Positions 1-15,802 are shown, numbered from the stretch's first letter. The stretch: 16,311 nucleotides of DNA from Candidatus Bathyarchaeia archaeon (GCA_050012255.1 JBEKHN010000028.1:1-16311), one strand, 5' to 3'. Made by a program: numbers and translations. Notes: a model not told the origin generated them from the sequence alone.

Positions 1-244
1 CGTACTCGTTTATTGATACGCCGGCATTTTTACGTAAGAACCCATCGATTCGCATAATGCTTGGATCCTGGTCTTCAGAGTACGCTGGCCAAGCGATCGC
101 CGACGTCTTTTTCTTCCCTGAGAATTCTATTACGTCTCCAGATGAAACCCCTAACTTTTGCATTGTGATCTGGTCTATTCTAGCGATTCCTCTTGCCACA
201 TCTCTCTGTCTGGAATCCAGAACTCTCAGCTGAACTTCGCTCAA
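1..244 (-). CDS. cdc48: CDC48/VCP-family AAA ATPase, N-terminal part (runs off the window edge)
   Basis: Not in the ORF track. Manual minus-strand translation from TTG at 244 gives MSEVQLRVLDSRQRDVARGIARIDQITMQKLGVSSGDVIEFSGKKKTSAIAWPAYSEDQDPSIMRIDGFLRKNAGVSINEY, the typical archaeal CDC48 N-domain. Confidence 0.92.
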   Translation of the reverse strand, partial: MSEVQLRVLDSRQRDVARGIARIDQITMQKLGVSSGDVIEFSGKKKTSAIAWPAYSEDQDPSIMRIDGFLRKNAGVSINEY

Positions 245-551: not shown

Positions 552-845
552 TCACAGAGGCTTTTCACTTCTCTTTTTGCGAGGCTTATGCAGTATGAAA
601 GTGTGGCCTCGAACATCGATTAGGGCGGATTCTGTTTGCTGAGCTGTTTTTGACGCGATGTCTTTGGCGCTCTCATCCTCAAGCGCACTTTTCAATATTT
701 GGACTTTCACTATTTTCCTTTTCTCCAACTGCCTAGAAATCTCATTCATCGTCTGCGGCGACGCTCCCTCCTTACCAACCCATATTGTTGGTTTCTCTAA
801 GGTTAGCACACGTTTCATTCGATTTTTCGCCTTGGACGATATCAT
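552..845 (-). CDS. yhbY: YhbY/CRM-domain RNA-binding protein
   Basis: C-terminal 97 aa of ORF 552..1004: KPTIWVGKEG...EISRQLEKRKIVKVQIL...IDVRGHTFILHK is the CRM signature. ATG at 845 is the likely start. Confidence 0.88.
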   Translation of the reverse strand: MISSKAKNRMKRVLTLEKPTIWVGKEGASPQTMNEISRQLEKRKIVKVQILKSALEDESAKDIASKTAQQTESALIDVRGHTFILHKPRKKRSEKPL

Positions 846-973
846 GTTTCCTCCCGTTCCTTCAGTCCTGGTCAAACCATTTACATCCAAATAGTACAAT
901 GGAGCTCCTAAGATATAGGCATCAGCTTTATCCAAAATCTCATTCAGTTCTCTAGGTGTCTCATGACGCGCGC

Positions 974-998
974 GTGGGGTCGCTGGGATTTGAACCAG
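974..998 (-). pseudogene. Isolated 3' fragment of a tRNA gene (T-loop plus acceptor 3' strand; Pro-like, identity uncertain)
   Basis: Minus strand reads CTGGTTCAAATCCCAGCGACCCCAC, i.e. T-arm GGTTCAAATCC, acceptor strand CGACCCC and discriminator A. No matching 5' half (GGGGTCG) found nearby. Confidence 0.7.
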
Positions 999-1005
999 GG
1001 GCAAA

Positions 1006-1038
1006 TGGAGATATCTCCTTCAACTCCCCCATTTTTCT
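1006..1038 (+). repeat. Dispersed repeat, copy 1 (GGAGATATCTCC palindrome plus AACTCCCC..TTTTTCT tail)
   Basis: tggagatatctccttcaactcccccatttttct matches copy 2 at 6411-6443 at 25/33 positions ungapped. Core 1007-1018 is a perfect palindrome. Confidence 0.8.
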
Positions 1039-1364
1039 AACTCATGGAGTTCTTATTGGTGAAAAGTTTTTAAACTTTCGTAGCGTAATATTCTTAATAG
1101 CAAGTATTGTTTCGTGGAGATTGGTGTATGCCTTCATTGAAAAAGAAAAATGTTCAAAAGAAGAAGAAACATTCGGATAAAGTTGGGAAATAACGCAGAT
1201 TTCATATTTTGTGTTCATGCTGGTCTTTGTCGTTCATCTGCTGCACCGTCAACGAGGTTAACCTATTCAGAAAACGGAAGATAGAGTCCTAAAATAGCAA
1301 GATAACATAGAAATGAGACTTAGATTGGCCGTCTGCCTAGTTGAATAAATGCGGCGTTGTCAAT

Positions 1365-2474
1365 ATGAAATATGATGTTAAATGCTCAGCGTGCGGCTAT
1401 CATTCGAGCAATCTGCTTGATTTCAGGTGCTCTTCGTGTGGCATGCCATTGGACATACAACTTCACCTCGATTTTGAAACTAAGAGAATTTCTAGGAAAG
1501 ATTTCTCAGTTTGGCGATACAGAAGATTCTTTCCCTACGTAAAAGAGAGTGAGATCGTGAGGCTCGGAGAAGGATGGACACCTCTGGTCAGATTCTCTGA
1601 GCATGTCCACTTCAAACTTGAAAGCCTGAACCCAACGGGTTCCTTCAAAGACAGAGGATCCGCATTGCTTGTCTCTGCTCTTCACAAGCTGATAAAGAAA
1701 AGAAGAGGCTACATTTCCGAAGACTCTTCGGGTAACGCGGGCGCATCGATCGCCGCATACGCAGCCCGCGCCGGGTTGAGGGCGAAGGTATACGTTCCAG
1801 AAGCCGTCTCGGGTCCAAAATTCAACCAGATCCAATTTTACGGAGCTGATGTTGTTAGGGTTTCTGGAAGCCGGAGCAAGGTTGCGGAGGAAGCGCAGAA
1901 ACATGAAACTGGAAAATTCTACATTGGCCACATACTCCATCCGTTGTTCCGTGACGGAATAAGAAGCCTAGCTTATGAGATGGCTGAACAGCTCGGCTGG
2001 GAGGCCCCAGATCGTGTCTATTTGCCCGTCTCCGCGGGAACTTTGCTGCTGGGCGTTGTAAGCGGATTTCAACATTTGGTCGGCTCAAACGTGATAGAAT
2101 CAATGCCGAAAATAGTGGCTTGCCAAACGAGGCAGGTCTCGGCGCTTTATCATCGCCTTAAGAACTTGAGCTACACGCCACCTGAGACTGTAACGTCGGT
2201 TGCTGACGCCCTGGTCAGTGTCGATCCGCCGCTGTTGGAGCTTATGGTTAAGAACTTGAAGGAAGTAGAAGGCGACGCGGTCATTGTTGAAGAAGAAGAG
2301 ATAGTTGAAGCCTTCAGAGAGCTTGCGGGAAGAGGCTTCTACGTGGAGCCGAGCTCTGCCGTTGCTTACGCTGGCTACAAGAAACAAGTCGAGAACAAAG
2401 AGATACCGATTGGCAGTAGCGCTGCAATAGTTTTGACCGGAGCTGGTTTGAAAACAGCAACGATCCGACCCTAA
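1365..2474 (+). CDS. thrC: Threonine synthase-family PLP enzyme
   Basis: N-terminal CxxC...CxxC, LGEGWTPL, NPTGSFKDRG (PLP lysine), SSGNAGAS, VEPSSA, VLTGAGLK. ATG at 1365 preferred over TTG at 1341. Confidence 0.88.
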   Translation: MKYDVKCSACGYHSSNLLDFRCSSCGMPLDIQLHLDFETKRISRKDFSVWRYRRFFPYVKESEIVRLGEGWTPLVRFSEHVHFKLESLNPTGSFKDRGSALLVSALHKLIKKRRGYISEDSSGNAGASIAAYAARAGLRAKVYVPEAVSGPKFNQIQFYGADVVRVSGSRSKVAEEAQKHETGKFYIGHILHPLFRDGIRSLAYEMAEQLGWEAPDRVYLPVSAGTLLLGVVSGFQHLVGSNVIESMPKIVACQTRQVSALYHRLKNLSYTPPETVTSVADALVSVDPPLLELMVKNLKEVEGDAVIVEEEEIVEAFRELAGRGFYVEPSSAVAYAGYKKQVENKEIPIGSSAAIVLTGAGLKTATIRP

Positions 2475-2530
2475 CCGCGGTAATCTGCCAAAGTTTATGT
2501 TCAAAATCTAACTTCTACCCGTTCCTTTTA

Positions 2531-2578
2531 GAAAAACTTATATTGTGAGGCTGTTTTTCATTGTGACGCAAAAGGAGG
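2531..2578 (+). promoter_or_regulatory. Putative BRE/TATA box and RBS of the thermosome gene
   Basis: gaaaaacttatat at 2531-2543; aggagg at 2573-2578 upstream of the TTG start at 2591. Confidence 0.55.
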
Positions 2579-2590
2579 TTTGTTTAAGGT

Positions 2591-4243
2591 TTGTCAACAC
2601 AATCAGCTGGTGGTGTTCCGGTTCTAGTGTTGAAAGAAGGCTCTAGTCGTTCTAGAGGGCGAGAAGCTCTGCACACAAACATTGAAGCTGCTAGAATAGT
2701 GGCTGAGACTGTGAAGAGTTCCCTCGGACCAAAGGGCATGGACAAGATGCTCGTGGACAGTTTTGGCGACGTTACCATAACAAGCGACGGACGGACAATT
2801 TTGGACGAGATGGATATTCAGCATCCAGCGGCAAAAATGATGCTAGAAGTCGCGAAAACCCAGGACAACGAAGCAGGCGATGGAACAACAACCGCGGTCA
2901 TAATATCCGGCGAACTGCTCAACAAGGCTCAAGAGCTGGTTGAAAGAAGTGTTCATCCAACGATAATAATCGACGGATACAAGAAAGCTTCGGACAAAGC
3001 ACTGGAAGTTCTGGAAAAGATCGCTATTTCGATAGACCCGAGCTCCACAGATTACCCGAAGAAGGTTGCGATGACCTCGATGGCAAGCAAGCTTGTGGCG
3101 GAGCACAGAGAGTATCTGGCTGACTTGACGGTTAAAGCGATCTTGGCTGTGGCAGAGAAGGACGGTGACAAGTATAAGGCGGATGTCGACGACGTGAAAG
3201 TCGAGAAGAAACCTGGCGAGTCGACAAGGGAAACGAAGCTTATTCAAGGGATAGTCCTTGACAAGGAAATCGCTCATTCAGGTATGCCTAAGCGCGTCGA
3301 AAAGGCCAAGATAGCTCTGCTTGACTGCCCGCTCGAGATCGAGAAGACGGAGTTTGACGCAAAGATCAACATTGAAAGCCCGGAGCAGATGGATGGCTTT
3401 CTCAAGCAGGAGGAGGACATGCTGCGCGACATGGCTGAAAAGATTGCGAAGACTGGTGCCAACGTTGTTCTGTGCGAGAAAGGCATCGACGACATGGTCC
3501 AGCACTTCCTTGCCAGAAAAGGGATACTTGCGGTTCGAAGGAACAAAAAGTCAGACATGGAGAAATTGGCCAAGGCTACTGGAGGAAAAATAGTGACCAA
3601 CCTTGACGGCATGACTTCGGCAGACCTGGGCTATGCTGCTCTGGTCGAAGAACGCAAGATAGGCGACGACAAAATGACCTTCATAGAAGGATGCAAGCAT
3701 CCCAAGGCCGTTACCATACTGATAAGGGGTGGAACCCAACGCATCGTGGACGAAGCAGAGCGGTCAGTGCACGACGCTTTGTGCGTGGTCAGAGACGTGG
3801 TTGAAGAGCCAAAGATCGTTGCGGGAGGAGGAGCCCCAGAACTAGAAGTTTCACGCATGCTCAAGAAATACGCGGAAACTCTGCCAGGAAGAGAACAGCT
3901 TGCAGTCAAAGCCTTCGCAGAGGCTCTTGAAGCCGTGCCAATCACACTGGCCGAAAACGCAGGGCTGGACCCGATCGACATAATATCTGACCTCAGAGCA
4001 CGACATGAAAAAGGCGAAACGTGGGCGGGCATAGAAGTGAACAACGGAAAAACACAAGACATGGCCAAAGCAGGAGTCTATGAACCCTTGGCAGTCAAGA
4101 AACAAATAGTGAAGTCAGCAACGGAAGCTTCTACGATGATACTGAAGATCGACGACGTAATCGCTTCTGGAAAAATGAAAGCTTCCCCAACACCTCCAGG
4201 AGGCCCAGGCGGCGCTGGGTACCCAGGCATGGGGGAGTACTAG
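2591..4243 (+). CDS. ths: Thermosome (group II chaperonin) subunit
   Basis: [29 protein letters not shown] motifs and a Gly/Pro/Met-rich C-terminal tail. Alpha versus beta subunit not resolved. Confidence 0.97.
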
Positions 4244-4246
4244 AAA

Positions 4247-4504
4247 ACGTCTGAGACAAAACGGATCACGATCGGACCGCCAAAGCTCACCCGTTTCGAG
4301 AAGGCAAGAATAGTGGGGGCTAGGGCCCTGCAAATATCTATGGGTGCACCCATACTTGTCGACGTCTCAGAGGGCTTTTCAGGTCCAATAGACATAGCGC
4401 TGAAGGAACTCGGCGCTGGCCTCCTGCCGATGACTGTAAGACGAACGTTGCCCGACAACACTTTTCAGGATATTCCGCTGAAGTGGCTGTTGGAAGAGCG
4501 TTAG
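4247..4504 (+). CDS. rpoK: DNA-directed RNA polymerase subunit K (Rpo6)
   Basis: The frame of ORF 4313..4504 extends upstream to give (M)[34 protein letters not shown]...PIDIALKEL...PMTVRR. The conserved TRFEKAR motif lies before the GTG at 4313, so the apparent start is ACG at 4247. Confidence 0.93.
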
Positions 4505-4508
4505 AAAC

Positions 4509-5057
4509 TCATTTTTCTCTTTCTGGTTCTTCCAAAATCTGTTTTGCCGCGTTCAGCGTCTTTCTGATTCTCGTCCAGTGTGCGCCCTGCCAGTATATCT
4601 GGCCGCAGTTCGGGCATTTCCAGAACTCTTTGTAATGGTCAAAAGTACTTCTTTCAACCTTGCCCTCAGCCTGCTGTCTGGACACAAGCTTCACTGTTGA
4701 GTTGCATTTTGGACATCTGGATGACGCCATGTCTATTTCCAGTCTGACATCGTACCTCTTGGCAAGCTCCGCCAGTTTTTCTTCTCCAGTCAGTCCTTCC
4801 AGGTAGAAAGCGTCGATTCCTCTGGCATTGGCTCGTTGATAAAGTTCAAAGTCCCTCGTCAGCAGGATTCTTTTCTCCTTTTTCGCTATCATTAGAAGTT
4901 GTGGGTCGTCCAAGCTGCTCGAGTACTTCACGTCCTGTCCCAGCATGCGAAGCCAACGCGTCAGTTTTCCAAGCATGCCGTCGGCGACGAACCTCAAATG
5001 GTCACTGTCTCCGAATGACTCTGCCGCTTCCCGCTTTGGCAATAATTTCGCCTTCAT
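4509..5057 (-). CDS. Mut7-C RNase domain protein (PIN-like plus Zn ribbon)
   Basis: FVADGMLGKLTRWLRMLG, ILLTRD, RCPKCN, CPNCGQIYWQGAHW. Start is uncertain because it overlaps the end of pyrC. Confidence 0.88.
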   Translation of the reverse strand: MKAKLLPKREAAESFGDSDHLRFVADGMLGKLTRWLRMLGQDVKYSSSLDDPQLLMIAKKEKRILLTRDFELYQRANARGIDAFYLEGLTGEEKLAELAKRYDVRLEIDMASSRCPKCNSTVKLVSRQQAEGKVERSTFDHYKEFWKCPNCGQIYWQGAHWTRIRKTLNAAKQILEEPEREK

Positions 5058-6342
5058 CCATGATCAGCCGTCCGCCAACGAATGTTTTTGCGGGTTTTCC
5101 CTCGACCTCGCGTCCATCAAAAGGAGAAAACTTGGCCTTAGACAGAAAGTTGGATGAATCAATCCTGAACTTTTTGCGTAGGTCCACAACGGTCAAGTCG
5201 GCGTTGTTTCCTTCTCTCAAGTATCCTTTGCCCTTCAGGTTGAAGATCTCAGCGGGCTTCTCCGACATGAGCCTCGCCACATCACCAATCGACATTCGCC
5301 CTCGTTTGACTTGGGTCAGCAGGAGCGGAAGAGTTGTCTCTAGCCCCGGTATGCCAACCTTGACGTCCCAAACGGTATCAGCCTCCTTTTCTCCGATGGT
5401 GTGAGGAGCGTGGTCTGAGGCTACGATGTCGACCCAACCGTTTCTAACGCCCTCCCATAACGCTTCAGCGTGCTGTTTTTCTCGAACGGGCGGCATAGTC
5501 ACACCCAACGTTCCCGCCCTCTTCAAGTCATCAGCAGTCAGAAGCAGGTGGTGCGGGGTTACTTCGCAAGATATCAACATTCCAGACTTCTTTCCAGCGG
5601 CAATGGCTCTCAAACCATTCTGCGTGCTGACGTGGCAGAAATGCACGGGGAAGTTGCCCTGCTTGACCATGTCCAGAACACGTGTTGCAGCTCTCAGCTC
5701 CACGTTTTCCGAATGAGCCTTGAGGAAAGCGGCAACATCATTCTGTCTACGGCGTTGTAGCTCACCCTCACCTCTCTTCAACATCTGCTCGTCCTCCGCG
5801 TGAACAGAAGTGGAAACTTTAAGCTTGCCGACAGCCTTGAACGCTTCCAGCATGGCTTCATCATCGTTCACATCCAACCCGCCGACCTGATTAGCCATGA
5901 AAAGCTTGAAACCCACAGCACCTTCTCGCACAATTCCCTCTATCTCCCCAGCGTCTCCCGGAAATTCAGAGCGGAAGCCAACGTCCACCAGAATCCTTGC
6001 CTCCGCAATCTTCATTCGATTCCTCAAAGCCTCAGCACTCATCGTCACTGGATCGTTGTTAGGCATGTCAAGAACAGTCGTCATTCCACCCGCAGCGGCA
6101 GCGGCTGTGCCTGAGAGAAAGTCTTCTTTGTACGACTTACCCTCATCTCGAAGATGCACATGAGCGTCGATCAGCCCAGGGAGAACCAGATGATTCTCCA
6201 AGTCGAATCTTGCGTCAGCGGTAGGCATGCTCGATTCTCTGCCTATCTTAAAAATCCTGCCTTCGTTGAAGGCGATGCTGCAGTCTACTATTGCCTGCTT
6301 AAAGTAGGCTTTGGCATTTGCCAAGACGGAATCGACTATCAA
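5002..6342 (-). CDS. pyrC: Dihydroorotase-family cyclic amidohydrolase
   Basis: PGLIDAHVHLRD, AAAGGMTTVLDMPN, HFCHVS, EVTPHHL, SDHAPH, PGLET, FSPFDG. Confidence 0.87.
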   Translation of the reverse strand: MIVDSVLANAKAYFKQAIVDCSIAFNEGRIFKIGRESSMPTADARFDLENHLVLPGLIDAHVHLRDEGKSYKEDFLSGTAAAAAGGMTTVLDMPNNDPVTMSAEALRNRMKIAEARILVDVGFRSEFPGDAGEIEGIVREGAVGFKLFMANQVGGLDVNDDEAMLEAFKAVGKLKVSTSVHAEDEQMLKRGEGELQRRRQNDVAAFLKAHSENVELRAATRVLDMVKQGNFPVHFCHVSTQNGLRAIAAGKKSGMLISCEVTPHHLLLTADDLKRAGTLGVTMPPVREKQHAEALWEGVRNGWVDIVASDHAPHTIGEKEADTVWDVKVGIPGLETTLPLLLTQVKRGRMSIGDVARLMSEKPAEIFNLKGKGYLREGNNADLTVVDLRKKFRIDSSNFLSKAKFSPFDGREVEGKPAKTFVGGRLIMDEGEIIAKAGSGRVIRRQ

Positions 6343-6410
6343 GTCTCGTAGTGCTCCTCATCACTGAAATAACGTGAAATGGACATGTAAAAAGCTTATT
6401 CACTCTGCGA

Positions 6411-6443
6411 TGGAGATATCCCCCGTAAACTCCCCTTTTTTCT
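6411..6443 (+). repeat. Dispersed repeat, copy 2 (left boundary of the Cas1 module)
   Basis: tggagatatcccccgtaaactccccttttttct; the minus strand of the core reads GGGGATATCTCC. Confidence 0.8.
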
Positions 6444-6477
6444 CTCATTCATGCATCCAGCGCACGCTTCTTGGGTT

Positions 6478-6495
6478 TGGGATAAAACTTTACCC
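6478..6495 (+). repeat. Left copy of an 18-bp inverted repeat, inside a local hairpin
   Basis: TGGGATAAAACTTTACCC is the exact reverse complement of 15738-15755. It is enclosed by ttgggtttggg (6471-6481) and cccaaacccaa (6496-6506). Confidence 0.85.
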
Positions 6496-6558
6496 CCCAA
6501 ACCCAAACCCAAACACACAAACGAATAATAATCACATAGTTTATACTTCTAATGAGGC

Positions 6559-6879
6559 TTGTCTGTGAGCCTAGGTAGAAGAACTTTAATTATGTTCTTC
6601 GTTGTGAGTCTTTTTTTCATAGCTATTGGATTGGAATTATATTTTTTCACTCAGACAGTCAATGGCGCTAGCATTGGCACAGCTTGGATTAATGGAACCA
6701 AGGTTTCCAACATATGGATGGCCTCTCCTCCTTTTGTATTTCGTCCGTACTTGGATCTAGGCTTTAGGTTATTTGGATTTGGAACAGTTATTTTGGTTGC
6801 TACTTTCTTTGAGAGCCTAGTAGGAAAGAGACCAACCTCAGTTGTTGCAAAAATCCACAGGCGCCTGAAACTTCGGTAG
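6559..6879 (+). CDS. Small membrane protein (two hydrophobic segments, basic C-terminus)
   Basis: Hydrophobic runs LIMFFVVSLFFIAIGLELYFF and LFGFGTVILVATFF; TATA-like tttata at ~6540. Confidence 0.6.
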   Translation: MSVSLGRRTLIMFFVVSLFFIAIGLELYFFTQTVNGASIGTAWINGTKVSNIWMASPPFVFRPYLDLGFRLFGFGTVILVATFFESLVGKRPTSVVAKIHRRLKLR

Positions 6880-6941
6880 AAAGATTCGCTAGAAGATTGT
6901 TCTATCTGCGCATATTAACCACATTTCAGCCTGAGAGAGCA

Positions 6942-7142
6942 CTAAATGAGAAGTCCTCTACGTTTTAAAATTTCAATCCAAAATGAATCATCAGGATATT
7001 TCCACTTGAAAAATTCAGCAACAAACTTTTTGATTTCAAAACTGTTTCGTTCCATGCCTATCCAGTACAGCAGTCGGTGTCCAGTGAACAAGTCTAAGTC
7101 TATGACGCTTTCTTTTTCAAAAGCATAATCGCCGTGTCTCAC
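6942..7142 (-). CDS. Hypothetical protein, 66 aa
   Basis: Last gene of a tightly coupled minus-strand operon. Its GTG start overlaps the upstream TAG stop (TAGTG), with a gaggag RBS upstream. Confidence 0.6.
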   Translation of the reverse strand: MRHGDYAFEKESVIDLDLFTGHRLLYWIGMERNSFEIKKFVAEFFKWKYPDDSFWIEILKRRGLLI

Positions 7143-7318
7143 TATGTTGTCTCCTCTTTTGTTGGAATTGGCTCAAGAATGAAAGTGTAGCTTTTCTTTC
7201 CATCAAGAACCTTCCTCAATTCTTCAAGGTTTGCGATGTATCGCGCTTTCTTAACTACAACACTAACCTTCTTGCCGTCCTTGCTTAAACTCAAATAGCC
7301 ACAGTCTTTCCAAACCAT
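7142..7318 (-). CDS. Hypothetical protein, 58 aa (missed by the ORF track)
   Basis: Manual translation MVWKDCGYLSLSKDGKKVSVVVKKARYIANLEELRKVLDGKKSYTFILEPIPTKEETT*. It fills the gap between neighbours, starts 2 nt after the upstream stop and has an aggagg RBS. Confidence 0.7.
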   Translation of the reverse strand: MVWKDCGYLSLSKDGKKVSVVVKKARYIANLEELRKVLDGKKSYTFILEPIPTKEETT

Positions 7319-7320
7319 TG

Positions 7321-7821
7321 TTATCGCCTCCTTTCCTTCCTGAGAAAATTGAGTATGAAACTGCGATTTCCCAGATACTTCTTAATCATTTTGTCTTGAA
7401 GGCCATAGCGAAAAACAATTTTTGGAATAGGCTTCTTACCTTTTCTTGACATCCTTACGGTTGAAGTTTCCTTGATGCACTGCATCCTAACATATCTTCG
7501 GAGATTCTCGTTTCCGCTTTCCAAAGCAACCCAGTTCATCACATGAACGTTTCTGCCCCAATCGACTGGACTATTAAAAACCACATGATAACTTGCCTTC
7601 CTGAGTCTGAAAAAGACTTTGCGTTTCTGTGTCACAACATAGTTTTTGTGGCTTGATTCCGAGATTATGAATCCTTCCAGTTTGAAAAAGAAGGTTGCTC
7701 TGTAAGACCAGAGTTTTACTTCGTCTAATGAAGGGGCATCATCCCAGTCTAATCTAATGGTTTCTGTATCCCAGTCTCCAAAGACCAGAGAAGTGTTAAC
7801 TTTCAACTCTTGGTCTCGCAT
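7321..7821 (-). CDS. Putative minimal archaeo-eukaryotic primase (AEP)-like protein
   Basis: hhDxD motif (IRLDWDD), SYHVVF (motif II-like His) and TVRMSRKG (hRh). No clear motif III Asp. ATG at 7821 preferred over TTG at 7839. Confidence 0.5.
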   Translation of the reverse strand: MRDQELKVNTSLVFGDWDTETIRLDWDDAPSLDEVKLWSYRATFFFKLEGFIISESSHKNYVVTQKRKVFFRLRKASYHVVFNSPVDWGRNVHVMNWVALESGNENLRRYVRMQCIKETSTVRMSRKGKKPIPKIVFRYGLQDKMIKKYLGNRSFILNFLRKERRR

Positions 7822-8260
7822 CCCAGTGTCCCCTTTCAAGAAATTCTTCTGGAGATTCTAACAAAGCCTCAGAACTTATGGTAAGAAATTGTTTTTTGGG
7901 CGGGTGCTTAGAAACAATCTGCATGGCCTCATACAGTTGTCTTCCGCTTCCAAACATCTGTATCCTTTTAGATTTTCCGTGTTCTGAACCGTAACAGGCA
8001 ATCTGTTTGGCGAATATTCCAATTTTTGGCGCTGGCGTGTATGTCGTTTGTCTTCTATATTCTCTGGGTATGTGCTTCTGAACGTGAGGTCTTGCTCGTT
8101 TATGTTTGGCTTGTCTTACGTAATGGAGCAGTTTGGTGCGCCTCATACCTATGTGTCTCTGTCTCAATTTCTGCTGGATTTTGTTTGCAGAGTAGCCTTT
8201 GCGAGCGTAACTTCTGATTGCGTTGATTTGCCGTTTTGAAACACCTTTAGTTTTTGCCAC
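7796..8260 (-). CDS. Very basic protein with an HTH-like N-terminus, probably nucleic-acid binding
   Basis: K/R-rich; IRSYARKGYSANKIQQKLRQ resembles an HTH; aggtgg RBS just after the ATPase stop. Confidence 0.65.
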   Translation of the reverse strand: MAKTKGVSKRQINAIRSYARKGYSANKIQQKLRQRHIGMRRTKLLHYVRQAKHKRARPHVQKHIPREYRRQTTYTPAPKIGIFAKQIACYGSEHGKSKRIQMFGSGRQLYEAMQIVSKHPPKKQFLTISSEALLESPEEFLERGHWDARPRVES

Positions 8261-8270
8261 TGTCCCACCT

Positions 8271-9221
8271 TCATCCTAAAGCATTAAATGAGAAGTTCAT
8301 CCATCTAGCAAGAAACAAAACATGGTCAACGTCTTTCTGTTCAATTTCATCTCTACTGTCTATCATAGCTGAAGCGTAACACAGTTTCTGAAGATTCTTC
8401 TGAACTCGAAAGCCATAACTATCGGAAAACTGTGCGAGCTTAAGACTGACCTGTTCCAGTTGGCTGAGAAGCTTAGGCTTGGGTTCGTACTCTTTTGTTT
8501 CCGTGTAACTGAGGAATTGTATTTGAGGTATTCGTATATTGTATTTTTTTGCAGGAGTGTTTCCGAAGAGAAAATTGAATATTCTTGCAGTGTTGTCGAT
8601 GGGATATTCATAGCTGAAAGGAACCATTCGACTTAGGAAACCCATTCTTTTAAGGTCATTGTAGAGGCTTGACTGTTGCGGTGAAGAATATGTGAGGCTT
8701 TCTCTTGTTATCGCGCTTATTAAACCGACTTTTACGGGAGTGGGATATTCGTATGTTTTGTATGGTGTTGCTACTCTTCTTGTTCCTTCATCAACCATCG
8801 TCTTCATGGTTTGAAGTAAGGGTTTTTTGGTGACTGAGGCTTTTTCCACACAGTTGAGAATATCGGGAATCAGTACGAATCTTATTTGGCCGTTTTGTGC
8901 TCTGGGAAATATGGTGTCGGTGAAAGTTTTTGAGGTTACTTCGTTTGCGTAGTAGATGAAGGGATAGTTGGCGAAGAGGTCTATTGTGCTTGTCTTTCCA
9001 GATTCAGGTTTAGCTATGAGCATGAGGCTTGAAGGTCGATAACCGTCTATTCTATCGGTTACGAATGCGGTTTGTATTGTGAGTGCAGTTATGTCAATTA
9101 GTGGCTGTATGTTGACTAGGTTTTCACCTTTTCGAGCTTGGCCTCCTGAAAGTAGTGACTGAGAGTATATACCCTCCCTAGGGGAAGGTAATGGTGGCAT
9201 GTTGTCGCTTTTCATTTTCAT
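8271..9221 (-). CDS. MCM/MoxR-like AAA+ ATPase, putative helicase lacking the MCM N-terminal domain
   Basis: Walker A AKPESGKTS, Walker B-like FVLIPD, MKTMVDEG, sensor-1-like ISAIT, arginine finger FLSRM and lid FRVQKNLQKLCYASAM...KDVDHVL. Start may be downstream (e.g. 9200). Confidence 0.75.
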   Translation of the reverse strand: MKMKSDNMPPLPSPREGIYSQSLLSGGQARKGENLVNIQPLIDITALTIQTAFVTDRIDGYRPSSLMLIAKPESGKTSTIDLFANYPFIYYANEVTSKTFTDTIFPRAQNGQIRFVLIPDILNCVEKASVTKKPLLQTMKTMVDEGTRRVATPYKTYEYPTPVKVGLISAITRESLTYSSPQQSSLYNDLKRMGFLSRMVPFSYEYPIDNTARIFNFLFGNTPAKKYNIRIPQIQFLSYTETKEYEPKPKLLSQLEQVSLKLAQFSDSYGFRVQKNLQKLCYASAMIDSRDEIEQKDVDHVLFLARWMNFSFNALG

Positions 9222-9239
9222 TCACTTCGAGAAAAGGGT

Positions 9240-9278
9240 TATATCGCGGTATAGATATATCACTTTTAGAAGTGATAT
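9240..9278. promoter_or_regulatory. Palindromic operator-like sites between the divergent ATPase and wHTH-cas1 units
   Basis: atatcactt-ttag-aagtgatat (9257-9278, perfect 9-bp arms) and tatatcgcggtata (9240-9253, 12/14 palindrome). Confidence 0.55.
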
Positions 9279-9282
9279 CGTA

Positions 9283-9906
9283 ATGTCACGCAAAAAGGCC
9301 AAGAAAAGTAATACGCCTCAAATTGGAATATTCATCGACAAGAAAAGTGCAAACTACAATCGGTTGATTCTTGAGATACTATTCTCGCAACAAATGGAAG
9401 CATGGCAAATAGCAGAAGCCATACTTAGAAAAAAAGACCCAAATATTAGCAAGGAAATCAAGGAAGTGAGGCGTTACCACACACAGAAAATCTACAGCGT
9501 CATCCAAAGGAAAAATGGACGGCTTGAAGACCTGAGAAACAAGGGTTACATAGGAGAAGAAAACGGAGTATGGAACCTTACAAAAAAGGGTTTCATCGCA
9601 TTAAGCATAGAGAAGCCTGATTTGGTAAATAATGAAATTCAAAAAAACAAAAACCTTCTTTTGGAATCATTCCAAAAAAGAATTACTTCGATGCCAAATG
9701 GCATGGCAAAAGTGGCTCTGGGTATTCATATTGACTTCTCTGAGATTAAACCATACTTTGAGAAAGTAGACAAATTATCTTTATTTCACATGTTTATTGA
9801 AGAGGCTAAGACTCTGCTTTCAGAAGGAATAGAATTGGACAGAATAAGCGAAAGTGATTTTGAGGCTATAGTAATGAATAAGCTGTCTTTTTCTAAGAAG
9901 GCATGA
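9283..9906 (+). CDS. Winged-helix DNA-binding protein
   Basis: LILEILF...AWQIAEAI...RLEDLRNKGYI...WNLTKKG wing pattern. Likely start is ATG 9283; the stop overlaps the cas1 start (ATGA). Confidence 0.7.
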   Translation: MSRKKAKKSNTPQIGIFIDKKSANYNRLILEILFSQQMEAWQIAEAILRKKDPNISKEIKEVRRYHTQKIYSVIQRKNGRLEDLRNKGYIGEENGVWNLTKKGFIALSIEKPDLVNNEIQKNKNLLLESFQKRITSMPNGMAKVALGIHIDFSEIKPYFEKVDKLSLFHMFIEEAKTLLSEGIELDRISESDFEAIVMNKLSFSKKA

Positions 9907-10946
9907 TTATGGTTCAAGGTTCTAAAACTCAGAAGATAGTCTTAGACAGTCAAGGTTCTTATTTGGGAATGGAGAAAGGATGCTTCACAGTCAAGGATAG
10001 AGAAGGCAACGTTCAACGCTTCCCATTATTCGAAAATACGTTGGGTTCCGTTGTTTTGAAAAGCGGTAATGCCGTTTCTACTGGGGCTTTAGCTTCTCTG
10101 GGATTCTGGGATATTGACGTACTGATAATGACTCAGAGAGGGAATCCTGTTGCTATGCTCAGAAGCCTTGATGATTCCAGTCATGTTGAAACCAGAATTG
10201 CCCAGTATGAGTCTCTGAAGAATGTCAAGTTCTCTGAAATAGCTAAACAGTTTGTCTTATCAAAAATAGAAGCTCAGAATCAAGTGCTGTCGAAGTACGG
10301 GCTGAGAAGGTTAGATTATTCGCATATCGAGCAGGTTAAAGGTCTTAAAGAAACTGACTCTAGAACCCTGAGGAATAGGCTGACAACGATAGAAAGCCAC
10401 TGTTCTAGGCTGTACTTTGACCAAATCTTTCAAATGTTCAATGAACCATTAAGACCAGACGGAAGAAACGGTTTCAAGGCTTATGACGGAATAAATAACC
10501 TCTTCAACCTAGCATATGAGGTTCTCTCTTGGAAAGTGCACATAGCTCTAGTAAGAGCTAGGCTTGAACCGTTCATGGGATACCTGCACAGCTTAGCATG
10601 GAGTAAACCGTCTCTGGTTTGCGATTTTCAAGAGCTCTATCGCTACTTAATGGATGATTACGTTATTCAGTATGCTAGAGGTCTGAAGGCTAAGGATTTT
10701 ACGTTGAAGACTGAAGATTTTTCCAGTAAGAAGAAGGGCAAGAGAGAATACCTTAGCGATTTCAAGACTAGAGATTTTATGAAAAGCCTTAACGAGTATT
10801 TTCTTTCTGAAGTGAAGATACCGAGATACAGAATGGGCAAGAAGCAAGAGTTGGAGACTTTGATTAGTGAAGAGGCTATGCTGTTTGCGAAGTACCTGAG
10901 AAATGAAAGACAAACATGGATTCCAAGAATACCGAGCCTAGCTTGA
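9903..10946 (+). CDS. cas1: Solo Cas1 endonuclease/integrase (casposase-like)
   Basis: GSYLGMEKG, VSTGAL, RIAQY, IESHCSRLYF (catalytic E), DGINNLFNLAYEVL, GYLH (catalytic H), SLVCDFQELYR. No cas2, other cas gene or array in the window. Confidence 0.95.
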   Translation: MIMVQGSKTQKIVLDSQGSYLGMEKGCFTVKDREGNVQRFPLFENTLGSVVLKSGNAVSTGALASLGFWDIDVLIMTQRGNPVAMLRSLDDSSHVETRIAQYESLKNVKFSEIAKQFVLSKIEAQNQVLSKYGLRRLDYSHIEQVKGLKETDSRTLRNRLTTIESHCSRLYFDQIFQMFNEPLRPDGRNGFKAYDGINNLFNLAYEVLSWKVHIALVRARLEPFMGYLHSLAWSKPSLVCDFQELYRYLMDDYVIQYARGLKAKDFTLKTEDFSSKKKGKREYLSDFKTRDFMKSLNEYFLSEVKIPRYRMGKKQELETLISEEAMLFAKYLRNERQTWIPRIPSLA

Positions 10947-10957
10947 TGGAGAAAAAC

Positions 10958-10987
10958 GGAGATATCTCCCGAACACCCACATTTTCT
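10958..10987 (+). repeat. Dispersed repeat, copy 3 (11 nt after the cas1 stop; right boundary of the Cas1 module)
   Basis: ggagatatctcccgaacacccacattttct, with the perfect palindrome GGAGATATCTCC at 10958-10969. Confidence 0.8.
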
Positions 10988-11048
10988 GTGGCTTTTCGTT
11001 ATCTGCTATACCACTAAAGTATAGAGGCAGCCCTTCACATAAAGGTTC

Positions 11049-11294
11049 CTAATGTCGTCTTCTACGTGACAGCTTCCTATGCTTCTTAGGTGTCATGTTC
11101 ACCACGATAATGAAATAGGCCACCATCAGGAAGAAAAAGAACACCAAAGGAGAGATCTGAGAGAATACACCTTTAACAATGAGATATGCTAGATTGCTTA
11201 TCAGGATCAGTCCAAGTCCGAGAAATAGGCTGCTGATTAGGTTTCTGTTCGCGCGCGCGCGCGAACGATTCAGGTGTGAGTGAAAAAGAAGCAC
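11049..11294 (-). CDS. Possible small two-TM membrane protein with a basic tail
   Basis: LISSLFLGLGLILISNLAYLIV and PLVFFFFLMVAYFIIVV followed by KKHRKLSRRRRH. The start is uncertain and a (GC)6 tract lies in the 5' part. Confidence 0.45.
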   Translation of the reverse strand: MLLFHSHLNRSRARANRNLISSLFLGLGLILISNLAYLIVKGVFSQISPLVFFFFLMVAYFIIVVNMTPKKHRKLSRRRRH

Positions 11295-11603
11295 GATTCA
11301 TAACATCAAAGAAAGCCAACACTTTCACCTGTCACTCAAGTTAGGTCCGTTCCAGTATTTATCATTCATTTGCGCCCTTGAAGGAAAAGACGTCAAATCG
11401 AAATAGGCATAGCGCGCGCGAAATACGAAACTCTCTCCATCTCGTCCCGGTAAGGGTTCGTTCAGTCTTTCAACGAAGTGTCGGGGCACTAAAAAGCGCG
11501 CGCCCTTCACTAACTCTTCCGCCCGTTCATCATGGTCAATAATAAGGTATCTTCCAATGCTTTGCTCTTTGGCAACTTGTAATACACTCCTCCGAGGCCT
11601 AGT

Positions 11604-11663
11604 CCGGAAAACCTTATATCCATCCACCACCACAATATATGTATGAATTACATGTATCAGGTG
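11604..11663 (+). promoter_or_regulatory. Putative BRE/TATA and RBS for the ubiquitin-like operon
   Basis: ccggaaaaccttatat at 11604-11619; aggtg at 11659-11663 before ATG 11672; tacatgt occurs twice (11649, 11669) and may be an operator. Confidence 0.45.
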
Positions 11664-11671
11664 TTTTCTAC

Positions 11672-11935
11672 ATGTCAGTCGAGAAACTCTCAAGAATAGT
11701 TGAATTGCTAAGAAAAGAGGCAAAGGTATCGCCATCTCAAATCGCTGAGACGATAGGATCCGATAGAAGGACCGTAGACAAGATGCTTAATATTGCTGAG
11801 AACCTGAGCATTATATCCTGTGAGAGGCTGGAGATGGCGGGAAGAACATATAAAACATGCGAACTGAACCCAGATTTCAAGAGAATATTACAGAAGAGGA
11901 GTGAGCACGATGAGCCAACCAGAAAAAACGAATGA
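11672..11935 (+). CDS. Small winged-HTH regulator leading the operon
   Basis: RIVELLRKEAKVSPSQIAETIGSDRRTVDKMLNIAENLSII. Likely start is ATG 11672; overlaps the Ubl gene. Confidence 0.8.
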   Translation: MSVEKLSRIVELLRKEAKVSPSQIAETIGSDRRTVDKMLNIAENLSIISCERLEMAGRTYKTCELNPDFKRILQKRSEHDEPTRKNE

Positions 11936-12185
11936 ACCCATGATTACGATAACCATAAGAACAGTGGATGGAGAAACCTGGACCAACGAATTTAACATTC
12001 ACGAGCCAATTAAAAGCATCCTGCAGAAATCGCTGGCACACTTTGGGATACAACCTGCTCCCGGAATTGTGTTTCATTTTCTGTACGAAGGCAGATTGTT
12101 GGATGAAAGCAAAACGCTTGAGCAAGAAGCGGTAAAAACAGGATCGACGCTAGTCTTCGGAACGGAAGCACAAGTTGGACAGTAG
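11910..12185 (+). CDS. Ubiquitin-like beta-grasp modifier (BilA-like)
   Basis: ITITIRTVDG...FLYEGRLLDESKTLEQEAVKTGSTL parallels ubiquitin [23 protein letters not shown]; ends ...AQVGQ. Confidence 0.88.
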   Translation: MSQPEKTNEPMITITIRTVDGETWTNEFNIHEPIKSILQKSLAHFGIQPAPGIVFHFLYEGRLLDESKTLEQEAVKTGSTLVFGTEAQVGQ

Positions 12186-12212
12186 ATGACACAACAACTC
12201 TAGTGAATGGAA

Positions 12213-13022
12213 ATGACCATCGCAGTCTGCATATGGGTTCCGGAAGGAATCGTGCTTGCATCTGAAAGCCGTCAAGTCTACAAGAACCAAAAGGGCAATT
12301 ACAGGACTTCATCTGATTTAGCTCAGAAAGTTTTCCAGTTGTCCGCCCGTATTGGCGGAATTACATGTGGCAGAGCTTATCTTTCCAAGAAAGGCGTACT
12401 GAGTCTAATCGAGGAATTCAAAGCCTCAGCTAAGGCTTCAGGAAGCAACCTTGATGAAATTGCAGTCAAAGACATGGCGGACAAGGTCGGAGCTTTTCTT
12501 CAAAGCAAATGGCAAGAGCAGACAGCAGATGGCGCGGAAGGAGGAGCTTCATTGTTGAGCCTTGTTATAGGGGGATATGAAAATGGAATAAACCGTATCT
12601 TCGAGGTTTCACTTCCTGGGCCATCGATAGTGGAAATAAGCACTTTGCAGGAGCTGGGGGCGGCCTGGAGAGGTCAAACCGACGTTGTAACCCGGCTAAT
12701 AAAAGGGTTCGATCCAAGAATAAGCAGTCTTTCATGGTTTCAACCAAACTATACGCAAGAACTGGAAAAGCTGAGGTATATGATAGGTTTTGACGCCATG
12801 ACCTTGCAGGATGCAATTGACTTTGCCGTCTTTCTGATAAGGACAACGATTGATATGCAAAGGTTTTCCGATGGAATATCGCTAGATCCAGGCGACATAC
12901 CTGGCACAGGTGGCCCAATTGACATAGCAATTATAAGACCAAATGAAGGTTTCGCGTGGGTGCAGAGAAAGGAGCTAAGAGGCGAAACACTATACAAACG
13001 AATGCGCATTGGCGAAAGCTGA
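12213..13022 (+). CDS. Proteasome-beta-like Ntn hydrolase (Thr1 nucleophile)
   Basis: (M)TIAVCIWVPEGIVLASESR...AQKVFQL...GGITCG gives Thr1, acidic residue 17, R19, and Lys33- and Gly47-like positions; C-terminal QDAIDFAVFLI...TGGPIDIAII. ATG at 12213 exposes Thr after Met removal. Confidence 0.85.
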   Translation: MTIAVCIWVPEGIVLASESRQVYKNQKGNYRTSSDLAQKVFQLSARIGGITCGRAYLSKKGVLSLIEEFKASAKASGSNLDEIAVKDMADKVGAFLQSKWQEQTADGAEGGASLLSLVIGGYENGINRIFEVSLPGPSIVEISTLQELGAAWRGQTDVVTRLIKGFDPRISSLSWFQPNYTQELEKLRYMIGFDAMTLQDAIDFAVFLIRTTIDMQRFSDGISLDPGDIPGTGGPIDIAIIRPNEGFAWVQRKELRGETLYKRMRIGES

Positions 13023-13061
13023 ATGGGCCATTCAAGTATTGCTGCTGTGCAAGCAGAGTGA

Positions 13062-13490
13062 ATGATGGAAGCTTCAAGAATGGATGATTCGGCTTCGCTG
13101 GCCTTTCTTGACGACCAGATCAAGAAACTTAAGTCAATTTCCGAGCACCTGCTCATCCATAGCATTGATGTTAGTCAGTGGGATATTTACGTGACTCTCA
13201 CTCGCGCCAAAGACGGAAAAGAACACACAATTCGCTTAAGATGTGACAATGGCTATCCTATTACTGCGCCGAGCGTCACGTTCGTAAGTCCTGTGGACTT
13301 CAAAATGGAAGGAGTGCAGTTTTGGCCCGATGACGGCGAACGTGCATTCAAAAGAACGTCTAGCCCTCCGTTTATTTGCATTCCTGGAACAAGAGAGTAC
13401 TATGAGCATCATCGGGAAGTTCAGGTTGCTCCGCGCGATGTGTCCTTAACCAAAATAGTCGCCGAGCTAGTAACGATGATGAACCGGTAG
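13062..13490 (+). CDS. E2/UBC-fold conjugating enzyme, CEHH type (type II BilB-like)
   Basis: GYPITAPSVTF (UBC YPxxxP) and FICIPGTREYYEHH (catalytic Cys with the C-E-H-H pattern). Confidence 0.82.
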   Translation: MMEASRMDDSASLAFLDDQIKKLKSISEHLLIHSIDVSQWDIYVTLTRAKDGKEHTIRLRCDNGYPITAPSVTFVSPVDFKMEGVQFWPDDGERAFKRTSSPPFICIPGTREYYEHHREVQVAPRDVSLTKIVAELVTMMNR

Positions 13491-13503
13491 ATGTGGGGTA
13501 AGA

Positions 13504-15755: not shown

Positions 15756-15802
15756 TATACAACGCACACGCACACGGAGTGAGTGTGAGAGTGAAGGGCG
15801 CG

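Follow-up and report, generated by a model that had tools for sequence, protein, structure and literature searches.

Three same-strand repeats in a 16,311-nt stretch of DNA from a peat archaeon of the Bathyarchaeia (the whole stretch analysed, hereafter the window) belong to a dispersed, lineage-wide family of motifs of about 34 bp. On balance, this motif is probably a one-sided boundary of site-specifically inserted, integrase-type mobile DNA stacked in tandem, with a Cas1-containing segment as one member of the stack. Since the repeats belong to a family of about 36 copies found at the edge of tRNA-adjacent inserted DNA, they are not a duplication made by the neighboring Cas1 gene.

The repeat search of the window returned one family with three copies of 34 nt, all on the + strand, at 1005-1038 (copy 1; ATGGAGATATCTCC TTCAACTCCCCC ATTTTTCT), 6410-6443 (copy 2) and 10956-10989 (copy 3; ACGGAGATATCTCC CGAACACCCAC ATTTTCTGT), scoring 37.9, 43.5 and 36.3 bits, respectively, against the genome-wide matrix described below. 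Successive copies are separated by 5405 and 4546 nt. Taking copy 1 as reference, copy 2 is 76% and copy 3 is 65% identical to it, and the aligned rows show differences between copies 2 and 3 as well. A CRISPR array was considered and rejected on this kilobase spacing and these identities, and none was found in the genome by a crude scan; CRISPR repeats are similar in length (about 30-34 nt) and in having a core that is palindromic in part. Copies 1 and 3 contain the palindrome GGAGATATCTCC unchanged, and copy 2 deviates from it at one position (GGAGATATCCCC). With up to one mismatch permitted, 3 matches are found in the window against 0.04 expected by chance, and none of 200 shuffles reaches 3, which confirms the repeats described in an earlier note on this DNA. 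Its observations that they lie outside genes and that two of them bracket the Cas1 module also stand: none of the three copies is within a long ORF of the window, and copies 2 and 3 flank the Cas1-containing stretch 6559-10946. Copy 1 touches the TTG of ORF 552-1004, whose true start is probably near 846 since the YhbY domain begins only at residue 56. Copy 2 lies 68 nt upstream of an amidohydrolase gene (5002-6342, minus strand), and copy 3 begins 10 nt past the stop codon of cas1 (10946). On the other hand, the short terminal inverted repeat formerly proposed is an effect of the core being its own reverse complement, while the extended motif (CGC, C-run, T-run) is direct, not inverted, in all three copies.

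The source assembly is a MAG, 98.5% complete with 5% contamination, and no single exact public contig spans the join at 6505-7347 of the window. The genome (2.35 Mb) was scanned with a matrix built from 21 hand-picked copies, which match it by construction. The scan gave 68 windows above 12 bits, from which 3 shifted duplicates were dropped; 36 strong copies score at least 25 bits, 33 of them beyond the window, while three mononucleotide shuffles of 0.8 Mb yielded 1-2 matches above 12 bits. The consensus is [A/G/T]TGG[A/C]GAYRTCTCC-CGC-N6-7-C-run-T-run, and its palindrome, with at most one mismatch, occurs 27 times genome-wide. In a search independent of the matrix, the exact pattern GGMGAYRTCTCCCGC has 10 matches in this genome and is present in 8 of 10 same-genus genomes and in 17 of 31 genomes overall, this one included (16 of 30 relatives), with the reversed control giving 0 matches across all 31. 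Most strong copies are intergenic (28 of 36), and the other 8 are inside short opposite-strand ORFs (100-156 aa) that are taken to be spurious. Contigs shorter than 40 kb hold 16 of the 36 copies, where 6.1 would be expected from their share of the genome (17%), and two 5-kb regions with copies have no match in the relatives G001 or G007. Pairs of neighboring copies within 8 kb have the same orientation in 4 of 6 cases at 25 bits or more and in 8 of 10 at 20 bits or more; contig C27 carries three same-strand copies, as does the window.

The high copy number, the graded decay of the copies (from 47 down to 12 bits), the clustering of intergenic copies on small repeat-rich contigs and the other dispersed repeats beside them could also be the result of a selfish miniature repeat (REP-/MITE-like, or an IS200/IS605-type end) that spreads by itself through intergenic DNA and favors tRNA 3' halves. 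We consider this unlikely. Similarity between copies is confined to about 35 nt, with no second end found, and single copies are not surrounded by a partner end, an inverted full-length copy or a target duplication. No transposase was detected among 10 neighboring genes scanned, and what relatives lack at two empty sites is a whole cargo segment (1.2 and 12.6 kb), not a 34-bp unit.

The relation of the motif to inserted DNA is visible at copy 1, where it forms an attR-like junction with a tRNA 3'-end fragment (974-1004, minus strand). Positions 996-974 run from the T-loop through the discriminator and one base more, and agree at 23 of 23 positions with the 3' terminus of a multi-intron tRNA of contig C5 (about 15130-14984). 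Bases 1004-997 loosely resemble a variable loop and T-stem. The homology of relatives over the YhbY flank ends between 967 and 975 (974-975 in G001, the closest one). No full tRNA is found within the window, its contig ends in a repeat, and its flanks are not syntenic in relatives, being located elsewhere in G001 and G007.

Two sister loci, on contigs C1 and C2, have an intact target tRNA at the proximal boundary and can be compared with empty sites. In G001 the counterparts of C1:22965 and C1:35536 adjoin, overlapping by 29 nt. The 12.6 kb between them is therefore inserted DNA at a tRNA gene, and here the palindrome begins at most 5 nt from the limit of homology. Likewise, G007 joins C2:64075 to C2:65319 with a 26-nt overlap, which means that a 1.24-kb insert, made of one APH gene and the motif, is absent from G007; at the same site G001 has a different 2.2-kb cargo ending in the same palindrome and fragment. 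In both the C1 and C2 inserts, the motif is the outermost element-side sequence and its T-run points into the insert. Exact fragment matches to resident tRNAs cover 22-23 nt (23/23 between the window and C5, 23/23 at C1, 21/22 at C2). Imperfect similarity to tRNA extends about 12 nt past this exact match in the direction of the palindrome (at C1, 7 of 11 positions agree), which fits attP homology rather than a gap-filled target duplication and tells against a Cas1 product as well.

Among the 36 copies, a T-loop-like sequence in tRNA sense is present on the palindrome side in 7 (1, 1 and 0 in controls with three placements; 0.35 expected), beginning 10-12 nt after the palindrome in 5 of these 7. 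Judged by eye, the copies with a tRNA-like neighbor number about 10 of 36; in relatives they number 1 of 17. Other motif copies adjoin different recurring sequences. This fixed register between the palindrome and a tRNA-like T-arm, together with a promoter box that precedes the reversed motif of copy 1 by about 30 nt and several anticodons to which ARAGORN assigned no gene, might point to a small structured RNA of which the motif is one part, or to split-tRNA genes in which the palindrome acts as zipper leader before the tRNA 3' halves. Such an origin is very improbable, since six folds gave no folding signal (z-scores from -1.5 to +0.8), Rfam returned 0 matches at gathering score in the window and two chance-level matches in 800-1400 (E up to 10), the tRNAs matching the fragments are intact elsewhere in the genome, and the empty sites show that the junctions arose by insertion.

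Tyrosine integrases that target tRNA genes reportedly cross over in the T-loop and have an identity block extending to the tRNA 3' end, as Williams is said to have described in 2002. The direct repeat of 22-23 bp from T-loop to discriminator is like the attR of these elements, as are the intact tRNA near one end with the fragment at the far end and the empty sites in close relatives, both seen at the sister loci, and the imperfect resemblance to tRNA that continues from the core into the element side. Unlike them, one conserved 34-bp motif stands here beside the core across different target tRNAs. Two further differences tell against reading the motif as an element boundary, namely that most copies have no tRNA core alongside and that the polarised inserts and the window have no integrase: none is found among 10 ORFs scanned in the C1 insert or in the window ORFs, and the C2 insert holds just the APH gene. 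The genome has 14 tyrosine-recombinase matches, with no motif above 11.2 bits within 1.5 kb of any of them. Two integrase ORFs overlap tRNA sequence in antisense, one of them at the same tRNA whose fragment adjoins copy 1, and beside that integrase there is a homologue, 68% identical, of window ORF 6559-6879. The full motif is also present in six IMG/VR viral contigs; in L082 it follows an integrase ORF at a distance of 60 nt and precedes portal and capsid genes, and in L088, with its T-run facing inward, it is located 14 nt from the end of the contig.

Given the junction at copy 1 and the same orientation of copies 2 and 3, we read the window as a series of stacked segments. Copy 1 is followed, on its T-run side, by a dispersed unit of about 240 nt (1039-1277), with copies on contig C22 and in four relatives; this unit has the promoter-like box AAAGTTTTTAAAC and small ORFs of 44 aa (1150-1284, + strand) and 58 aa (1042-1218, minus strand). 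A core-genome block conserved across the genus follows (1278-6409; PLP enzyme, thermosome, Mut7-C RNase and amidohydrolase), with identities of 95% in G001, 92% in G007 and about 73-74% in G009 and G004, and with both flanks differing in G001 and G007. Most of the DNA from copy 1 to copy 2 is core genome conserved in the genus, so that this segment is not itself a mobile element, which counts against an element boundary. Beyond copy 2, a promoter-like box (GGGTAAAGTTTTATCCCAAACCCAA; 6471-6514, minus strand), present in very high copy number in four metagenomes, points to copy 2 and the amidohydrolase gene, and the homology of G001 and G007 stops in its region (6508-6512). The segment that carries Cas1 (6559-10946) is located to the T-run side of copy 2 and has five ORFs without a family match (6559-6879 and 9199-9906 on the + strand; 7321-7839, 7796-8260 and 8271-9221 on the minus strand) and the Cas1 ORF itself (9903-10946, + strand; Pfam Cas_Cas1, E 9e-45; TIGR00287, 1e-43). 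It is less GC-rich than the core block (about 0.36-0.42 and about 0.50-0.54, respectively). The segment on the T-run side of copy 3 (10990-16311) starts with two small ORFs of no assigned family, continues with a Bil-like (ubiquitin-like-conjugation) gene set of a proteasome-beta-like protein, DUF7665, a BilC-like protein and a fused E2+E1, and closes with a dispersed repeat where the contig ends.

The motif could instead be a host cis-regulatory element, an operator for a dimeric transcription factor over an accessory gene set, whose link with inserted DNA would be secondary. In variants of this explanation, the palindrome would be followed by an oligo-T terminator (+ orientation), or an A-rich TATA-like box would have its start just after the palindrome (- orientation). 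The central pyrimidine-purine step of the palindrome and its fixed spacing to the T-run are in favor of it, as well as the position of copy 3 and of the L082 copy shortly after the stops of cas1 and of an integrase gene, both on the strand of the gene. A half-motif, CG(C/A)AAA..C-run..T-run, is found at the stop codons of two integrase genes, promoter-like boxes located 25-50 nt past the T-run are aimed back through copies 1 and 2 at the YhbY and amidohydrolase genes, and five paralogous AsnC/wHTH genes are within 4 kb of copies. However, no orientation rule is seen, as the nearest gene on the palindrome side shares the strand of the motif in 16 cases and has the opposite one in 18 (20 and 12 on the T-run side), distances to the nearest genes are mostly 100-600 nt, and the neighboring genes have no common function. 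The C-run plus T-run is about twofold enriched after stop codons (50 vs 26 of 1673 genes), with plain T5 runs unbiased. Moreover, the motif is missing along with the insert at both empty sites, and the orthologues of copy 2 are decayed in G001 (21.6 bits) and G007 (31.3 bits), faster than their 92-95% identical surroundings, and absent in G009 and G004. A regulatory role of this kind is possible, though not likely.

One reading of the earlier note was that Cas1 had duplicated its target of about 30 bp, which would make the module a giant spacer, and the note saw in copy 2 a resemblance to casposon termini. The position of copies 2 and 3 around the gene is in favor of a Cas1 product of one kind or the other. 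As in casposons, in the part of the literature drawn on here, Cas1 is present without Cas2 (no match to the family in the 98.5% complete genome, so that this Cas1 is solo) or a CRISPR array, its homologues in this genus are multi-copy, often broken and decaying, and a tRNA 3' end is near one repeat. Casposons use tRNA 3' ends. In addition, G001 holds a decayed copy of the module with a motif copy at a distance of 2.5 kb, the two being oriented relative to each other as in the window. Even so, a Cas1 product of either kind is extremely improbable. A target-site duplication specific to Cas1 insertion was rejected on the 36 genome-wide copies and on two close relatives: G001 and G007 keep a decayed copy 2 at the orthologous place but have no Cas1 module there. 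At this place, copy 2 either came before the Cas1 module or, at the least, does not depend on it. A fresh duplication would have left two identical copies, and those around the module are not identical. None of 7 Cas1-homologue loci from other Bathyarchaeia genomes has a motif copy above 10 bits, and the other full-length Cas1 locus of this genome, on contig C30, has no match above 12 bits. Unlike casposons, as described in the same literature, no family B DNA polymerase is found in the 19 window ORFs (E up to 0.01; these are profile matches only, and the five unmatched ORFs could include remote homologues) or among 10 neighbors of Cas1 homologues, the bracketing copies are direct over 34 nt, with just the self-complementary 12-mer reading both ways, and the repeats are genome-wide and not tied to cas1. 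Of the possibilities first raised, element ends left by repeated insertions agree with our findings, except that the insertions are tRNA-linked and unrelated to cas1. The condition that the earlier note named for its own refutation holds by half: the motif is common genome-wide and has no association with cas1, but it is associated with insertion boundaries.

We return to the proposed boundary motif of inserted DNA. On the + strand of the window, it consists of the 12-bp palindrome GG(A/C)GAY-RTCTCC, CGC, 6-7 variable bases, the C-run and the T-run. Where the history is readable, the palindrome is outermost on the element side, about 12 nt from the 22-23-bp copy of the tRNA 3' end, a geometry expected of the attR junction of a tyrosine-integrase-type insertion with crossover in the tRNA T-loop. 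Copy 1 would be such a junction. Copies 2 and 3, which have no tRNA core alongside, the tRNA 3' copy being found at copy 1 only, would be same-orientation boundary motifs whose core was lost or never present. The stack would then comprise the unit 1039-1277 with the core block, the Cas1 segment and the Bil-like island, with the motif at the same edge of each, and the Cas1 segment would be one stacked segment, not the maker of the repeats. Against this reading, a joined form skipping 6444-10955 was not seen in four metagenomes, a result of little weight as contigs only were searched. As to the biochemical role of the motif, which we infer from the sequence, the palindrome with its flexible central step is a putative site for a dimeric protein assisting or regulating recombination, and the C/T tract may be a stop for transcription entering the element.

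Comparable stacks are the tycheposons of Prochlorococcus, tRNA-seeded islands grown by successive integrations that push older elements outward (bioRxiv 10.1101/2020.12.28.424599). In the part of that preprint drawn on here, elements are likewise stacked, with partial tRNAs and degenerate remnants in the islands, and the cargo includes defense and metabolic genes. In contrast with that account, the present stack is archaeal, a shared palindromic motif marks it and not only partial tRNAs, the anchoring tRNA is off the contig, and core genome forms part of it.

Same-orientation, site-like motifs that delimit cargo, down to a single gene plus motif in the C2 insert, are also reminiscent of integron cassettes. 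The integron attC is a 55-140-bp imperfect inverted repeat beside single-ORF cassettes and the integron integrase, whereas this motif has 34 nt, with a perfect 12-bp palindrome and a C/T tract, the segments are 1-12 kb with genes on both strands, and no integron integrase or attI was seen. We suggest tentatively, as a rather unlikely extension, that an archaeal cassette-accretion system recombines at the 34-bp motif, and that its integrase-less cargo would be captured in tandem at tRNA genes by a recombinase acting in trans. If true, each segment, from a single kinase gene to 12-kb islands, would have one palindromic site beside a tRNA-like core, and the system would cover both the Cas1-solo module and the ubiquitin-like defense island. 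These stacks would then be analogous to integron cassette arrays, with another site and another enzyme, and common to Bathyarchaeia hosts and their viruses.

One repeat family is present in the window, on the plus strand at 1005-1038 (copy 1), 6410-6443 (copy 2) and 10956-10989 (copy 3), copies 2 and 3 being 76% and 65% identical to copy 1. The three same-strand repeats with a palindrome claimed in the earlier note were borne out, since the palindrome GGAGATATCTCC with at most one mismatch occurs three times against 0.04 expected by chance, and 0 of 200 shuffles reach three. In the whole genome assembly, G000 (2.35 Mb in 38 contigs, 48% GC), of which the window forms one entire contig (C28, 16,311 bp), there are 27 such occurrences. 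Allowing up to two mismatches together with a T-run 6-16 nt downstream returned 35 matches, revealing a longer consensus of about 34 bp: the palindrome, CGC, 6-7 variable bases, a C-run and a T-run. The genome-wide scan that the note had proposed was run with a 38-column matrix built from 21 copies chosen by eye. It gave 68 windows above 12 bits in G000 (1-2 in each of three mononucleotide shuffles of 0.8 Mb), and 36 copies of at least 25 bits once three shifted duplicates were removed; copies 1, 2 and 3 score 37.9, 43.5 and 36.3 bits. Since the 21 training copies match by construction, we also used the exact pattern GGMGAYRTCTCCCGC, found 10 times in G000. Eight of 10 genomes of the same genus have it, as do 17 of all 31 genomes (G000 counted), whereas its reversed control matched in none of the 31. 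The C-run plus T-run tail is found in 11 of the 12 loci from relatives displayed. The motif forms a dispersed family. At the genome-wide density 0.25 copies would be expected in 16.3 kb, against the three present (Poisson P = 0.002), and clusters like this one were found elsewhere in G000 too. A full-text literature search, with supplementary files outside its reach, found no paper on the palindrome. A second repeat family has the same palindrome followed by CGAACAACGAAATTGGATTGCCGAGTT (G000 C7:11197 and C5:83407; L040:3753), and copy 3 shares its first 18 nt with it.

Of the 36 copies, 28 are intergenic and 8 lie inside short opposite-strand ORFs (100-156 aa) that are taken to be spurious. 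No rule relative to the flanking genes was found: on the palindrome side the strands of motif and nearest gene agree in 16 cases and differ in 18, on the T-run side they agree in 20 and differ in 12, and distances are mostly 100-600 nt. Contigs shorter than 40 kb, which make up 17% of the genome, hold 16 of the 36 copies. At a 20-bit threshold, copy pairs within 8 kb have the same orientation in 8 of 10 cases. Clustering the genes within 4 kb of the copies revealed dockerin proteins, ABC ATPases, AsnC-type regulators and methyltransferases, with no integrase and no common neighbour family.

By Pfam, the window encodes, from its left end, a CDC48 N-domain protein (2-244, minus strand), YhbY (552-1004, minus strand, domain beginning at residue 56), a PLP enzyme (1341-2474), a thermosome subunit (2591-4243), a Mut7-C RNase (4509-5057, minus strand), an amidohydrolase (5002-6342, minus strand), five ORFs with no family match (6559-9906) and Cas1 (9903-10946). 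Two small minus-strand ORFs with no family assigned follow on the right, then proteasome-beta-like, DUF7665, BilC-like and fused E2+E1 genes (12207-15598; BilC-like from a separate profile match) and a DUF167 protein. The ubiquitin-like conjugation genes at 12207-15598, with the BilC-like protein (PADLOC E 1e-10) and a Prok-E2_C and ThiF (E1) fusion, have the look of a Bil-type defence island, here archaeal and with an extra proteasome-like subunit. GC content is 0.50-0.54 over 1500-6300 versus 0.36-0.42 over 6300-11000.

Comparison with relatives divides the window into conserved and variable DNA. The genomes G001 and G007 have only 1278-6508/6512 in common with it, at 95% and 92% identity, and this block has other neighbours in both; G009 and G004 share about 1360-6342 at 73-74% identity. 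Copy 2 lies within the block and is decayed in the relatives that keep it (21.6 bits in G001, 31.3 bits in G007), with no matching equivalent in G009 or G004. No syntenic counterpart of the Cas1 segment (6559-10946) or of the right-hand island was found beside the block in the relatives compared. On the left, positions 1-974 are 95% identical to a different location in G001, and homology ends between 967 and 975 in G001, G003 and G007 (974-975 in G001), at the end of a tRNA fragment. By this comparison all three copies lie at borders between conserved and variable DNA, with the variable DNA on the T-run side. In G001 a copy of the second palindrome family lies 70 nt beyond the block's left edge, in the opposite orientation to copy 2. 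Between copy 1 and the block, 1039-1277 is a unit of about 240 nt also present at C22:993-1217 and at loci L048 and L052-L055 (72-88% conserved in G000 and four relatives). It contains a promoter-like AAAGTTTTTAAAC box, putative small ORFs of 44 aa (plus strand, 1150-1284) and 58 aa (minus strand, 1042-1218) and, at the same end in every copy, an A-run/G-run remnant of the motif.

The left join of the window is supported by one public contig, from the run best matching the window, that spans 735-6505 without difference. Among the contigs of four metagenome runs, where absence means little, there is no exact cover of 6821-7346 and no joint skipping 6444-10955, which contains the Cas1 segment. 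None of the sequencing runs listed as containing the window was of RNA. A 40-nt box at 6471-6514, reading GGGTAAAGTTTTATCCCAAACCCAA on the minus strand, resembles a BRE/TATA promoter; 25-28 nt of it are exactly identical at other Bathyarchaeia MAG loci, its summed contig depth in the four metagenomes is in the thousands, and contigs break at its two edges. The right end of the window (16130-16311) is a dispersed repeat, the last ~123 nt encode the same 41 residues as the start of C16 (100% at protein level), and the translated start of C29 shares 97% identity with YhbY ORF residues 41-77 (773-884). Assembly breaks at repeats, or strain variants, are the likely cause.

Empty sites in relatives locate the motif on inserted DNA. 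G001, a one-contig genome about 93-95% identical to G000 in shared blocks, joins C1:22965 to C1:35536 with a 29-nt overlap, so the 12.6 kb between these points are an insert in G000. This insert encodes PIN, an AbiEii-like nucleotidyltransferase, a cohesin/dockerin protein, QueC, QueT and PdxS/PdxT, with no integrase among the 10 ORFs scanned. Likewise, G007 joins C2:64075 to C2:65319 with a 26-nt overlap and hence lacks a 1.24 kb insert that carries the motif and a single APH kinase gene; at this site G001 contains other DNA, 2.2 kb long, that ends with the same palindrome and fragment. At both loci the element side ends with the palindrome, about 12 nt short of the exact repeat, and the motif's T-run faces the inside of the insert; no inverted motif was found at the other end of either insert. 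The motif travels with inserted DNA, at its distal edge, at two polarised loci. The 12 nt in between bear an imperfect likeness to a tRNA variable loop and T-stem (7 of 11 positions at C1), which is the pattern of a tRNA-mimicking attP and would not result from a gap-filled target duplication. The proposal in the earlier note that the repeats are element ends left by repeated insertions agrees with these findings, the motif standing at the insert edge at C1 and C2.

Both loci involve tRNA genes. On C1, a full tRNA (35536-35638) and the motif at 22970 are on the same strand, the fragment matching at 23 of 23 positions; on C2, a tRNA-Arg (63996-64071) and the motif at 65306 are likewise on one strand, with 21 of 22. 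The fragment adjoining copy 1 (window 996-974, minus strand) agrees at 23 of 23 positions with the 3' end of a multi-intron C5 tRNA. In many copies, reading on the opposite strand, the 3' part of a tRNA comes next. A T-loop-like regular expression, searched on the palindrome side in tRNA sense, matches at 7 of 36 copies (1, 1 and 0 in three control placements; background rate 0.0097 per 65 nt), and in 5 of the 7 the match starts 10-12 nt past the palindrome. The motif adjoins tRNA 3' copies in a fixed register. The C5 tRNA (~14984-15130, minus strand) and L045 in G001 have several introns, non-canonical positions included, and ARAGORN misses this tRNA. Its list of 45 tRNA genes in G000 is without several expected anticodons, which makes it probable that G000 has many multi-intron tRNAs. 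At C11:19015-19221, the tRNA fragment beside a motif copy is directly followed by a dispersed repeat of about 200 nt starting with TTAGCGCGCATGC (L040:16176-16377 in G001), with more than 20 copies in G000 that are 80-91% identical.

In G000 there are 14 tyrosine-recombinase matches, and no strong motif was found within 1.5 kb of these integrase genes (best 11.2 bits). Two of the ORFs, C5:14980-15990 and C15:26168-27112, run antisense through tRNA sequence, and the C5 one overlaps the tRNA whose fragment adjoins copy 1; beside it is a homologue (68% identical) of window ORF 6559-6879. Both integrase ORFs begin with codons antisense to a tRNA gene or fragment, and a GTG/TTG start may lie opposite its CCA end.

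The motif is present in viral contigs, in full in six from IMG/VR, L095 (19.5 bits) being counted as weak. Two 16-mer patterns matched 27 and 18 contig stretches, respectively one (L082, above 14 bits) and six (above 18 bits) of them motif-like, and a third, gapped pattern had 0 matches. In L082 the motif lies 60 nt past the stop of a same-strand integrase ORF and is followed by portal and HK97-type capsid genes. It stands 14 nt from the contig end in L088, T-run inward, and in L091 between an asparagine-synthase-like gene and a 574-aa protein without Pfam family. Three viral contigs encode proteins of 554-574 aa at 200-950 nt inward of the motif (L088:10304-11965, L091:10677-12398, L097:3987-5651). 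Two are 36% identical to each other and the third has a 38%-identical homologue in G000 (C12:45428-46681) adjoining an integrase; no Pfam family was found for any of these proteins. Two papers on Bathyarchaeia viruses and proviruses treat integrases and tRNA sites in general terms only.

The other reading in the earlier note, a target duplicated by Cas1 with the Cas1 module as a giant spacer, finds no support. No motif above 10 bits was found at seven Cas1 loci of other genomes, C30 of G000 is also without it, and copy 2 persists, decayed, in G001 and G007, which lack the module at the block compared. The window Cas1 is an ordinary one by family models; in this genus Cas1 homologues occur in multiple copies, many of them broken. 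We found no match to a Cas2 family in G000 (98.5% complete) and no CRISPR-like array in a crude scan of it, and neither the window ORFs nor 10 neighbours of Cas1 homologues matched a family B polymerase, Cas2 or Cas4. Nothing found ties the repeats to Cas1 activity. The Cas1 segment may itself be a mobile or decaying unit. Three of its five no-family ORFs recur near Cas1 in other Bathyarchaeia MAGs, and Cas1 with all five could be an undescribed Cas1-solo module.

Several functions of the motif itself were considered and rejected. Many copies open with ATG, GTG or TTG, as a small peptide would, but their reading frames diverge or reach a stop after 11-12 codons, and third positions are not the ones that vary. 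Six folds (three copies, two strands) gave z from -1.5 to +0.8, Rfam returned nothing and ARAGORN found no tRNA in the window, leaving no sign of a structured RNA. A split-tRNA leader is discarded, as the tRNAs concerned are also present intact and the junctions arose by insertion. Origin-recognition boxes consist of a dyad plus a G-string, a likeness ruled out by the dispersed copies. As for a general terminator, C-run plus T-run tails after the stops of 1673 genes number 50 sense versus 26 antisense, a weak signal, and T5 runs 307 versus 322. A host regulatory element is still a live rival to an edge tag of mobile DNA, since most copies are without the tRNA core and no integrase adjoins them.

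With the motif as such a tag, the window would be a stack of motif-bordered segments, a dimeric protein would read the palindrome, and the C/T tract may act on transcription, its role as a terminator being weakly indicated. The attractive giant-spacer reading is replaced by a testable sequence tag that marks and orients inserted DNA in an archaeal class both abundant and uncultured. If it holds, the tag would allow islands, proviruses and integrase-less cargo to be cheaply delimited in Bathyarchaeia MAGs, in which annotation of integrases and multi-intron tRNAs is difficult, and would also point to a predicted palindrome-reading protein.
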